Assembly (NCBI GenBank): GCA_964187785.1
Contig: OZ076409.1
Span: 13,518,001 to 13,582,000 of the forward strand
DNA: 64,000 bases
Reading direction: 5' to 3'
Origin: Amphiscolops sp. MND2022
Taxonomy: Eukaryota
Shown: positions 48,444 to 52,649 of the stretch, in pieces
Numbering within the stretch: the first letter of the stretch is position 1
Layout: each line of letters opens with the position of its first letter
Notes under the pieces: generated by a model
The model's input: the letters and a program-made list of their open reading frames with translations, nothing else
The model's database searches: none
Told to the model about the DNA's origin: nothing
Translations under genes and position numbers: made by a program

Positions 48444-51400
48444 ATGGACGGCCAACCGAGCCAAATCCCAGCTGAAGATATGGATGTCGATGTGCCAAAC
48501 ACTGAACGGTCACAAGAACTTGAAGCCACCAGATCGCCAGTGGACAAACAGTCCGTCGTCGAGCTTCCCTCTAATACTGATACCGAAAGTATATCCGTAC
48601 ATACATTAGCCGCACAGTCGAGTTACTGGCAAGCGTTGGGTCAATTACCACACACTCTAACGAAGAAACTACAGTTGGAGTGAAAACCAGCATAAGTGAT
48701 CCTGTCGCCATTACTCCGGGTGTAAACGAATTGATCCCCGAGGGCCAAGAAGCCGATGATGTCCCTAAAGTTGTCTTCCTTGACAAGCCGGATTCCATAG
48801 TTGAGGAGCCCGAATTCACTGATAAGAGCCAAAATAATGCTGAGGTCACTGAAAATGCTCCTGCTACAATGCCCGTTTCCGCTCCTGTAGTGCAATTAAA
48901 CTCAGCTATTGAAGAAGTGCAAGAGACTGCAACTGCAATGACGCAAGAAGGTGACCAAGGTCTGATGGACTATCGGTCACAAACCGAAGATGACTCGTGC
49001 TTTGGGATGGAAACTGACACTGGTTCGGTAGCACGTTCTACCCTCGCTGATGCCCTTTATTGTCAGAAACCACCTACCAACATTTCTTGTCCTCCAGGCT
49101 CCAGCAACGAGTCAAGCACATCACAACAACCAGAAGTTACTGGGCCTGCTCCCCTCACTAGTTCTAGCAGGTTGATGATCAAACAATGTTTCGAGGAAAC
49201 TACCCCTACATATTTGTCACCTGGTCACCCAACTGTAGTGTTTAATCAGGACCAAATCAGCAGTATCTTGAGGATAGTTGCCGATGAAAGTGCACGGGCA
49301 TCTTTTGAGATGCTGAACAGTGTGGTCCAGAGGGCTAGTCGACTTAACCTGCATGGCTCCCCAGTAGCTACTTCCAAAGGCAGACGACGAACAGACATGG
49401 ACCCTGAGACCGACACGGACGTTGGCAGTGAGTCTGTCATGACGTACAAAACCAGGGAAGGAGACAGTAGTCCAGGCTTCACAAGTGACAGGCTTCCTCC
49501 AGTCTTCCGTGTCTCTCCCCAATCCTCCGAGCGGAAGCAGAGAAACGCAAGTGGAACTGATGTCTACACAACCGTCCCCTGATAGCCCCAGTCTCGACAG
49601 AGAGATCCTCGCTAGCTTGAGACAGGAGGCGATTCGTGAAAAAGGGAAAGTCAAACATGCAGCGATTGGTACTACAAAGCCTAAAGGACCTCGGAGACCA
49701 AGGCGTAAGATTGGGAGGGTAATGAAGGAGGAGTATTTTGACTCCATGCCCTGGACCCGAGTGTTTGTATCTGGACCTCTCGACCCCAAATGGAACCCCA
49801 ACAAGATATATTGGCAAATTTGCAAGTGCAACGTATCAATTAGGGCAAAGGGACCAAAAGAGATACTCAGACATTACTCTACGGAGAGACACTTGCGAAA
49901 GGACCAGCGCTGGAGGTATGAATACCTCACAATTGAAGACCCCATTACCAAGCAGCCTCGATACCAAGTGAGGGGCAAGGATGGGAAAATCCTCTCCAAT
50001 TACCGACTCCAGCTAGAGCTTCCTCAATTCATCAATGCCGAACTGGTTGATATAGGAGAAAACCTTCCCTTCTACGATGAAGCGATGTCTGGTTCGGATT
50101 ACATGGTCTCATCGCCCCATAACCGAGCTCGGTTGCAGATCTCCATACTGGGGCACTACCTCCCACTATCGGGCGACATCAAGGTTCTACGAACCCTTTG
50201 GCAGCATACAGGCACCGTGGTTAATCACCAGTCTCTCTTTGCCGATATTGCTTGGAGCACAACTAGGTGGTCGGTTAGTACTCTGCATACGCTAATTGGA
50301 CTACCTGTCCATAACATAATTTGAAGGGATTAGAAAACCAACAAAATTGTTAAGTGGTAGAACTATTGCGATTGTTTTGATAGACTGTAGACTATAGGTC
50401 TACGTTGTACTGTCGTGTGCGACATTATCCTTCTAACTTACGGTGGTGTTTTAGGTGCTTTTCCACCATTTGTTCCAACAAATGATACCAAACTTGGGCA
50501 ATGACATCCTGACTGACGGGCAGTACAGCATTGAATTCGAGTTCCAAGGGGTCTTTCTGCACATGCACGTGCGTTTCTGGAAAAGGGACAGACTCTGCAG
50601 AGTCTATTTGTTGAGGACCGGACGTACTACTGGACGTACAGCTGCCGAGTTACGACTACTTTCGATATTACTAGCTGCCATTTCATCAGAAGCCAATCTC
50701 GTGTGTTGCTCTGGGGCTACCCAGAATTTCATCCAACTGGTAGACAACTCCCCACTCACCCGACATGGAGTCCAACGGCCGACCACATTTGATGACATCG
50801 CTATTAAGAAACTGATGCACAGTGATAGTTACAGTGTGTTCGGACGAATAGACTTTTTCTCCGTTCTCCAGTATCTTGTCATCAGTCTGGGAGGGAGTTT
50901 GCAACTGGAATGGACTCTACTTACTCCTGAATTGTCCAAAGTTAGTATGGTCATGGAGCCTTGCCCCTGTGGTCTTAGACGAGGGACTTAGTTTTGTGGT
51001 TTATGTTTAGGCTATCAAATCAGGCAGGCTGGATATCGTTTGTCTGCCTACCCTCTGTCAGGAGCTAATTACACACTGGAAAGCAGTCACCGCATACCTG
51101 ACTGCCCACGCGGTCCAGCAGCAGATGCAGGGAGTTAGAAATCAGGTAGAAATCTTGCTTTTGTTAATCACGTGTTAATCGCCATATGTTGAGTTATCGT
51201 TCGTATGTTTAGCCTCAGAGTCTTGAGTGGTCAATCATACATGATGGCTTCTTCACTTGTCAGCTGGAATTATTCCACAAACTTGTTCGTGACTGTAAGT
51301 TACTAGGTTTCGTTGGTTATTTGCTGTACTGAACTATAAGTCGCCAACTTCATATACGAGTCTATTGGTGTAGGTAGACCCCTTTCCTTCGTACAGACAT

Positions 51401-52649
51401 TCGGTCAACTTAGGGTCATCTCGACCATGAGGCGTTATAGGGTTGAGGGATATCCTTAGGTACTGATGCAGACGATTCCGTTGACATGTAGTTTCTTTGT
51501 TTAGACACCACCAGTTTCTCCCTCAGCCTCAGTGGACGACGCGATAGGGGCTTTTATTCCTTTAGACAGTTGTGTCTTTACCTGCTGAAGTTAGCTAAAC
51601 GCGTCGTAATGCCTTCTGCTTTGCCGGGCGAAGATGACATATCTGGAATCTTGGATCTGGATATCAATGTTGCTCCTGCCCTGAATGTCACAGTGTTCCT
51701 TAATCGAGTGAAATTCGGAGGGAAACTGGACCACGCCTGCAAGCTTAAAGCCGAGATGGAGATGCATGAGAAACAAGGAGAGAAGTTGACCTTGGTGGAG
51801 CTTACCAACAAGGCGCGGGACGAATACGGCAGGATAGCAAGAAGTTACATGACGCACTTATTCAAAGAGACTCGGAGCCACTTCGATTACACCACCATAA
51901 TTGCCCAAGGATTAGGGAGTTTTGATCTTGAAATTCTCCTAAAGTCTCCTCTTACCTTGGCTACTAGATGCTTCAGCAAATTGTTTATGTCATTCCGATT
52001 CCGGGGCTACTTTTCTGCTGCAGCTGAGACCCAGGCGCAGGAGGAATATTTGTCATTCGTGGATGAACTAAGGGTCAAGTTCTCCGAGTTCGACCACCCT
52101 ACCCTACTTATACCTGACACTATCGATTTTGTTATGGGGCAGACTTCAATTCATACTCGGCCTTTGTTGTTGCGATGTTTTAAACTTGCCAGCCTTTGTC
52201 TTGATGAGCCTTTTCGTTCGCTGCCTACTGTCAAGTTTGGATCAGTTAATACAGATGATCATACCAGTCAGCTGATTGATGTTGTCCTTCCGGTACAGTC
52301 GTACTTCAATGGAGTTGCAGGGTCAGTTGAAGCTGTCACTTCTGATTCTTCAATATCTGAATTTCTCGAGCTTGAGAGTACATTCGGTCGCCAAGCACTG
52401 AGTGACACTTACGACCCTTGGGCTGATTTGGACCAGTTCGGACGTGCGGATATTTTATCCAAGCTTGATCCCGAGGGTAAGTTCCAGTGTAAGTTTCGGA
52501 AAAAAAAGTCCGCTACTGCCCCTCAGGTTCAACAGTCTCCTAGCACTCTCCGCTTCTCCAAGAAAACTGCCCGACCAACCCGATTACTATCAGATGCCGA
52601 GATTAGCCGGTCTGCAAAGAGTCTGCGTCGGTGTAGTAGTAAAGACTAA
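48444..52649 (+). pseudogene. Antisense multi-exon gene: BED-like zinc finger plus hAT-transposase-like body
   Basis: Exons 48444-50273 (two frameshifts), 50455-50940, 51011-51145, 51213-51294 and 51505-52649 join in frame via GT-AG introns. Motifs (C>W)QICKCNVSI...EILRHYSTERH and LITHWKAVTAYL. Confidence 0.7.

Follow-up and report, generated by a model that had tools for sequence, protein, structure and literature searches.

How a gene with introns comes to lie within a retrotransposon, and what it might do there, is the question raised by a 64,000-nucleotide stretch of the genome of Amphiscolops sp. MND2022 (assembly GCA_964187785.1, contig OZ076409.1, positions 13,518,001 to 13,582,000; hereafter the window). 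The window holds two large long terminal repeat (LTR) elements, both on the minus strand; introns of the spliceosomal type and the elements nearby would by themselves point to a eukaryotic host, probably an animal. In the second, a Ty3/Gypsy element of 15.8 kb (44789-60547), a predicted five-exon gene lies between pol and the 3' LTR, in the aORF-3R position, on the strand opposite to reverse transcriptase (RT), RNase H and integrase; a preliminary description had correctly placed it between the LTRs and opposite gag-pol. That LTR elements can carry antisense accessory genes was recognised decades ago, yet where such genes come from and what they do has still to be settled. A review (PMC7264820) describes antisense open reading frames (ORFs) lying between pol and the 3' LTR; its examples are Grande, RIRE2, Retand, PvRetro13 and fungal Boty. 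It calls their origin mostly unknown and considers spliced antisense transcripts worth seeking. The preliminary description took the gene for one derived from a transposase and domesticated by the retrotransposon. As a spliced, multicopy antisense cargo linked to its element it stands; its ancestry in the hAT transposases is likely, short of proof.

The gene is almost certainly real and spliced. The four introns originally proposed (Table 1) each start with GT and end with AG; every one has stops in all three read-through frames; and their acceptors are four of only five TTTAG words on the plus strand between 49590 and 52649. The continuous frame claimed after splicing was recovered from 49590 (843 amino acids (aa), zero internal stops) and not from the ATG at 48444, after which it is interrupted twice: in 48581-48683, where the frame changes and a stop stands at 48681, and near 49490-49497, where it changes again and relatives read through. 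With these two breaks in the 5' part of exon 1, the window copy no longer has the full frame of about 1,225 codons intact; it has also lost its first zinc ligand and is decayed, as first described. The homology of relatives covers exon 1 from 48908 onward, with none seen upstream of that position.

Comparison with relatives supports most of the junctions. Exon 1 has 208 relatives, exon 2 has 14 near-identical copies, and for exon 5 the relatives form 93 clusters at 40-93% identity, or 689 representatives at E ≤ 0.001 in a profile search reaching down to about 24% identity. Many exon-5 relatives keep open frames across the exon, so that long-term selection on the protein appears probable. The last junction, previously held to be the least certain, is rather the best supported, as in five intron-less relatives (P0045, P0046, P0061, P0235 and P0256) exon 4 runs on into exon 5 just as the prediction has it, and P0245 keeps a short in-frame insert at the site; P0245 also covers exon 3, lacks intron 3 and aligns across junction 3. 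At donor 1, 50 of the 119 exon-1 matches stop exactly, and in no fewer than 63 of the 82 relatives aligned there the protein goes on past it with VS, which is how a GT donor reads. Junction 2 is the least tested, none of the relatives convincingly spanning it. On a quick tree (48 rows; 28 rows not scorable) the state lacking intron 4 implies at least four changes.

Carriage of the gene by the element family is very likely. For proteins of the window, the members of their 90% clusters were scored for common contigs, each contig being recognised by its length, a measure taken per contig rather than by position and confined to the element's own and sister subfamilies, not those below about 60% identity; the member lists hold the best 15 of 23, 15 of 34 and 15 of 18 members, so that contig overlaps are undercounted. 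Exons 1, 2 and 5 co-occur on contigs, 9 of the 13 exon-2 contigs being among the 12 exon-5 contigs listed. A cargo exon at ≥90% is accompanied by an LTR/gag or pol piece at ≥90% on at least 7 of 18 other contigs, against 0 of 86 in other cargo subfamilies (Fisher p 1.5e-6), and, with sister subfamilies added, on at least 16 of 93 contigs against 0 of 71 (p 6e-5). Hence the gene is present in many copies of the family, as in the aORF-3R class, linked at contig level to the LTR, gag or pol of this element. The LTR-end gag frames on three linked contigs enter three different flanks, all unlike that of the window, which argues that the linked copies are separate insertions and not a segmental duplication. 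No related locus was found in IMG/VR, JGI or GTDB contigs. In agreement with the preliminary description, no terminal inverted repeats (TIRs) with an 8-bp target-site duplication (TSD) bound the gene. Under relaxed criteria 2 pairs turned up, of which one ends in the last exon and the other in integrase, and no exact inverted match as long as 10 bases encloses it.

A conserved landmark of the product is a zinc finger whose W, C, C, H and H positions are retained in 78, 79, 79, 80 and 81 of 82 relatives, respectively; the first zinc ligand, missing from the window copy, is thus present in 79 of 82. The BED-like finger and the LITHWKAVTAYL segment noted earlier are both present. The finger follows the pattern W..C-x2-C..H-x3-5-H/C, which is that of the BED type; the label itself is not confirmed, as Pfam assigned PF25420, a generic C2H2 finger, to 53 of 83 members, a Spin-doc finger to 2 of 83 (E about 0.1) and zf-BED (PF02892) to 0 of 83. 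The spacing C-x2-C-x16-H-x5-H is presumably also compatible with U1/matrin-type RNA-binding fingers. Structure predictions were made for exon 5 and exon 1; the finger region of the exon-1 model has a predicted local distance difference test (pLDDT) score under 50, and the block downstream of it has a beta-hairpin without hAT counterpart. Within the low-complexity N-terminus, a helical motif (49154-49381, plus strand; 40-70% identity across subfamilies) is a candidate interaction site.

Origin of the gene from a hAT transposase is probable, with weak support from structure and from collinear profiles. Hermes (PDB 8edg) came second among 48,161 chains; none of the 50 rows shown has a longer aligned stretch, and its alignment falls where the exon order predicts. 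Aligned as a profile over its whole length with 23 hAT transposases, the gene is collinear over about 650 residues, and the landmarks (finger, first strand, DG site, TRW and LQ) come in order. In all 7 gap settings the score exceeds that of the reversed control, and 0-4 of 40 shuffles attain it (z 1.4-3.5; the collinear whole-length score overall has z 0.8-3.5). In the order of its parts the gene resembles hAT transposases of the Hermes and DUF4371/Dimer_Tnp_hAT type: an N-terminal finger, putative dimerisation helices, core, Trp motif, helical insertion domain and C-terminal helix. It differs from them, and from any active hAT, in having neither TIR nor 8-bp TSD and no D-D-E triad with its DE, DG, CxxH and ER.FS motifs, and it possesses an extra hairpin after the finger and a C-terminal extension of about 140 aa. 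The absence of a DDE triad reported at the outset extends to all 14 exon-2 copies, near-identical sequences only, which lack motifs found in 16-20 of 23 true hATs; an ER.FS-like word occurs in 1 of 132 exon-5 rows. Among 52 loci from a motif scan of genome contigs, 4 hAT-like frames were identified and served as reference; the scan of viral contigs gave 4 chance phage matches. In four prokaryote-labelled GTDB assemblies (G001-G004; loci L041, L044, L046, L050 and L057-L116), eukaryotic hAT transposases are numerous (PF05699 matched 60 times in G001), most likely through contamination.

Several other searches came back empty. DUF4371, Dimer_Tnp_hAT or other hAT profiles gave no significant match by Pfam, HMMER or hhalign; Foldseek (PDB, BFVD) and a second VIA run returned nothing significant; hAT is absent among the listed matches of the exon-1 model; PDB sequence searches were empty; no longer homologues of exon 5 were found, which is weak evidence; and Atlas gave no usable match for exon 5 and only unrelated ones, below 0.8, for exon 2. 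The gene might be real cargo of other than hAT derivation, or have passed through an already domesticated host gene, its finger perhaps binding RNA and countering small-RNA silencing. The null outcome of the standard sequence tests for hAT, the generic C2H2 finger as top Pfam match, the post-finger hairpin and the four introns, which fit a host gene, would suit such a history; the collinear landmarks over about 650 residues and the rank of Hermes speak against it, as does the lack of any named or single-copy host relative among the listed matches, all of which are unnamed and most in multicopy clusters. We consider it unlikely, though the best placed of the alternatives.

The explanation that we tentatively prefer, at slightly less than an even chance, is a multicopy five-exon antisense gene derived from a hAT transposase that lacks termini and catalysis and now serves the element as its own nucleic-acid-binding regulator. 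A hAT element of the DUF4371/TTF-finger kind would have inserted backwards behind pol in an ancestral Gypsy element and later lost its ends and catalytic residues. Introns on the antisense strand stay unspliced in genomic RNA, where they are no splice substrates, and therefore survive retrotransposition. Transcription would start in the spacer upstream of exon 1, followed by splicing and translation to a protein with a low-complexity Ser/Thr/Pro-rich N-terminus, a basic stretch, the C2H2 finger and a dead transposase scaffold. Such a protein would act in the nucleus like domesticated proteins of the ZBED/DAYSLEEPER type, its finger on element DNA and its scaffold oligomerising, so that the element stays transcribed; the element would have kept the gene for the benefit of such an oligomeric nuclear protein, with its zinc finger and low-complexity N-terminus. 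For the regulatory or anti-silencing role of this putative protein, considered apart from its origin, we see about an even chance.

With the same origin and carriage, the protein could have another job, as a dead scaffold at integration that binds complementary DNA ends or target sites and tethers or imports the complex. Hermes attaches to its own ends by BED fingers and forms oligomers (PMC10368747), nuclear import has been proposed for antisense ORFs (PMC7264820), and the whole scaffold, beyond the finger alone, is conserved; yet the element has its own integrase with a C-terminal domain, and the long low-complexity N-terminus would better suit a transcription factor, so that we think this role distinctly improbable. 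Still less probable is a functionless hitchhiker, either a transposase remnant copied passively or a locus of which only the antisense RNA matters. The window copy and many relatives are indeed broken, and antisense RNA can itself regulate elements (PMC7264820); against this stand the zinc ligands, retained in 79-81 of 82 relatives, the long open frames that survive even where subfamilies share no more than 24-35% identity, and a splice donor conserved across subfamilies.

The least probable alternative, an independent and still mobile DNA-transposon-like unit that repeatedly inserts into this Gypsy family, would explain the contig-level linkage as well as carriage does, along with the 14 of 30 LTR/pol contigs without a listed cargo copy and an integrase cluster shared with a cargo subfamily that is only 66% identical to that of the window (from which it follows that cargo and backbone can be shuffled), but the gene lacks TIR, TSD and catalytic motifs, and solo LTRs and partial member lists account for the cargo-free contigs. 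The readings as a nested hAT element and as an artefact were rejected on the junctions of relatives, the contig linkage, the lack of TIR and TSD, and the conserved zinc ligands.

Among known systems, the antisense ORFs of plant Gypsy elements (maize Grande gene23, rice RIRE2, Retand TRP28/PF04195; PMC7264820, PMC11963269) are alike in position, orientation and family-wide carriage, TRP28 ORFs being present in 97% of Retand clusters and predicted to bind DNA (PMC11963269), and alike also in the proposed internal promoter and the putative nuclear DNA-binding regulatory role. The protein, however, is unrelated, without a PF04195 match, and its gene of about 1,225 aa has four introns, the word intron being absent from the main text of the Retand paper (PMC11963269). 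In the review (PMC7264820) a nested origin of antisense ORFs is held to be unsupported because they resemble no other transposons, whereas the present gene is likely of hAT origin; if so, it would be a direct case of such an origin. The brtn gene of fungal Boty/BcGypsy1, to judge from its citation in PMC7264820 and PMC8365987, is likewise an antisense accessory gene in Ty3/Gypsy; unlike brtn, the gene described here encodes a large C2H2 protein with a transposase-like body. The ORF3 genes of LTR elements in bdelloid rotifers (PMC5408684) are likewise invertebrate, non-env accessory genes from a pool common to mobile elements; their products, DEDDy exonucleases or GDSL esterases, keep their catalytic residues, and the main text mentions neither introns nor a transposase. 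Domesticated hAT genes such as ZBED and DAYSLEEPER have similarly lost mobility; their owner is the host genome, and here it would be a retrotransposon. A literature search by title and start of abstract, with most subscription journals and Repbase outside it, returned no report of an LTR family with an antisense gene of hAT derivation.

Slightly less likely than the explanation preferred above is a reading in which a whole Gypsy radiation in the host lineage carries a dead, multi-intron hAT transposase that the retrotransposon has domesticated, in dozens of subfamilies down to about 24% identity that gain and lose introns during an RNA-based life cycle, as an anti-silencing or targeting factor. 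The likely descent of the gene from a DNA transposase would mean that class I elements domesticate class II proteins, much as host genomes have done in the case of ZBED. The finger with its predictable ligands, the many subfamilies and the natural loss variants would offer a handle on function, and the patchy intron 4 a route to intron gain and loss in a gene that is reverse-transcribed backwards.

Table 1. Coordinates, within the window, of the second LTR element and its antisense gene
Feature	Position	Strand	Remarks
TSD, left copy	44784..44788	.	CTATG, same 5-mer on both element flanks
3' LTR of Ty3/Gypsy element	44789..46348	-	holds copy of first 195 gag codons
Second extra ORF, 375 aa stop to stop	46254..47381	-	gag-pol sense; extends into 3' LTR
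Non-coding spacer between the two divergent extra genes	47382..48443	.	putative promoter region; TTTAG acceptor-like word ends at 48435, directly before ATG
Exon 1	48444..50273	+	Ser/Thr/Pro-rich N-terminal region, conserved helical motif, basic stretch, C2H2 finger, conserved downstream block
Zinc finger W-x3-F ... C-x2-C-x16-H-x5-H	49752..49892	+	first ligand lost in window copy
Intron 1, 181 nt, phase 0	50274..50454	+	
Exon 2, 162 aa	50455..50940	+	putative remnant of hAT RNase H-like core without catalytic motifs
Intron 2, 70 nt, phase 0	50941..51010	+	basis: splice words and frame only
Exon 3, 45 aa	51011..51145	+	L..LC....W segment, counterpart of hAT TRW motif
Intron 3, 67 nt, phase 0	51146..51212	+	
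Exon 4	51213..51294	+	in frame ahead of exon 5 in intron-less P0045, P0046, P0061, P0235, P0256, P0332
Intron 4, 210 nt, phase 1	51295..51504	+	presence varies by subfamily
Exon 5	51505..52649	+	helical domain like hAT insertion domain and C-terminal region, then family-specific extension
pol, several broken frames	52825..57582	-	protease-like, weak dUTPase-like, RT, RNase H, integrase
gag, broken	57851..59551	-	starts within 5' LTR, crosses primer-binding region; weak CCHC knuckle
Stretch like a primer-binding site, adjoining 5' LTR	58951..58968	-	
5' LTR	58969..60547	-	
TSD, right copy	60548..60552	.	CTATG

The host element has the hallmarks of Ty3/Gypsy: its LTRs, which differ by 34 substitutions over 1560 aligned bases, have TG...CA ends and a short TSD, and the domain order is protease, RT, RNase H and integrase, the protease being recognised by motif only and the others by Pfam. 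A dUTPase-like match between protease and RT (56483-57148, minus strand; PF00692, E 0.0016) is weak and below the cut-off. The gag frame begins about 580 bases inside the LTR and reads on through the LTR end and primer-binding region (58595-59551 and 44784-45371, minus strand), so that each LTR encodes 195 aa of Gag. In both LTR elements a palindrome of the CCCCGGG type, and not a polypurine tract, adjoins the 3' LTR (46349-46364; 19959-19975), and the second element has a G-run within the integrase tail near 52940-52952. The second extra ORF and the antisense gene lie head-to-head, separated by 1 kb of spacer, and may share a bidirectional promoter. The ORF has an acidic stretch and a C-x2-C...H segment; it had no Pfam match, and four exact look-ups with ATG starts returned nothing.

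The first LTR element of the window (17883-37182, minus strand) is a young Gypsy element with LTRs 99.9% identical, a CAATT duplication, and gag and pol open. Its sense-strand extras are a fusion glycoprotein (21291-23447; PF24664 Monjiviricetes_fusion, E 5e-39) and a TRAF/MATH-domain ORF (19982-20755; E 8e-22), and it also has several small ORFs of no known kind and a tandem array (24675-25311). Two overlapping long frames on the plus strand at 3108-7596 (684 and 912 aa) have weak C2H2 fingers and no polymerase match by Pfam; we take them to resemble protein-primed family B DNA polymerase of the Polinton/adintovirus type. A short remnant of a related LTR-encoded gag start lies at 40201-40380 on the minus strand (50% identical over 60 aa), and inverted arms of about 85 bases, 1.5 kb apart, at 8881-10424 likely mark a non-autonomous DNA transposon.
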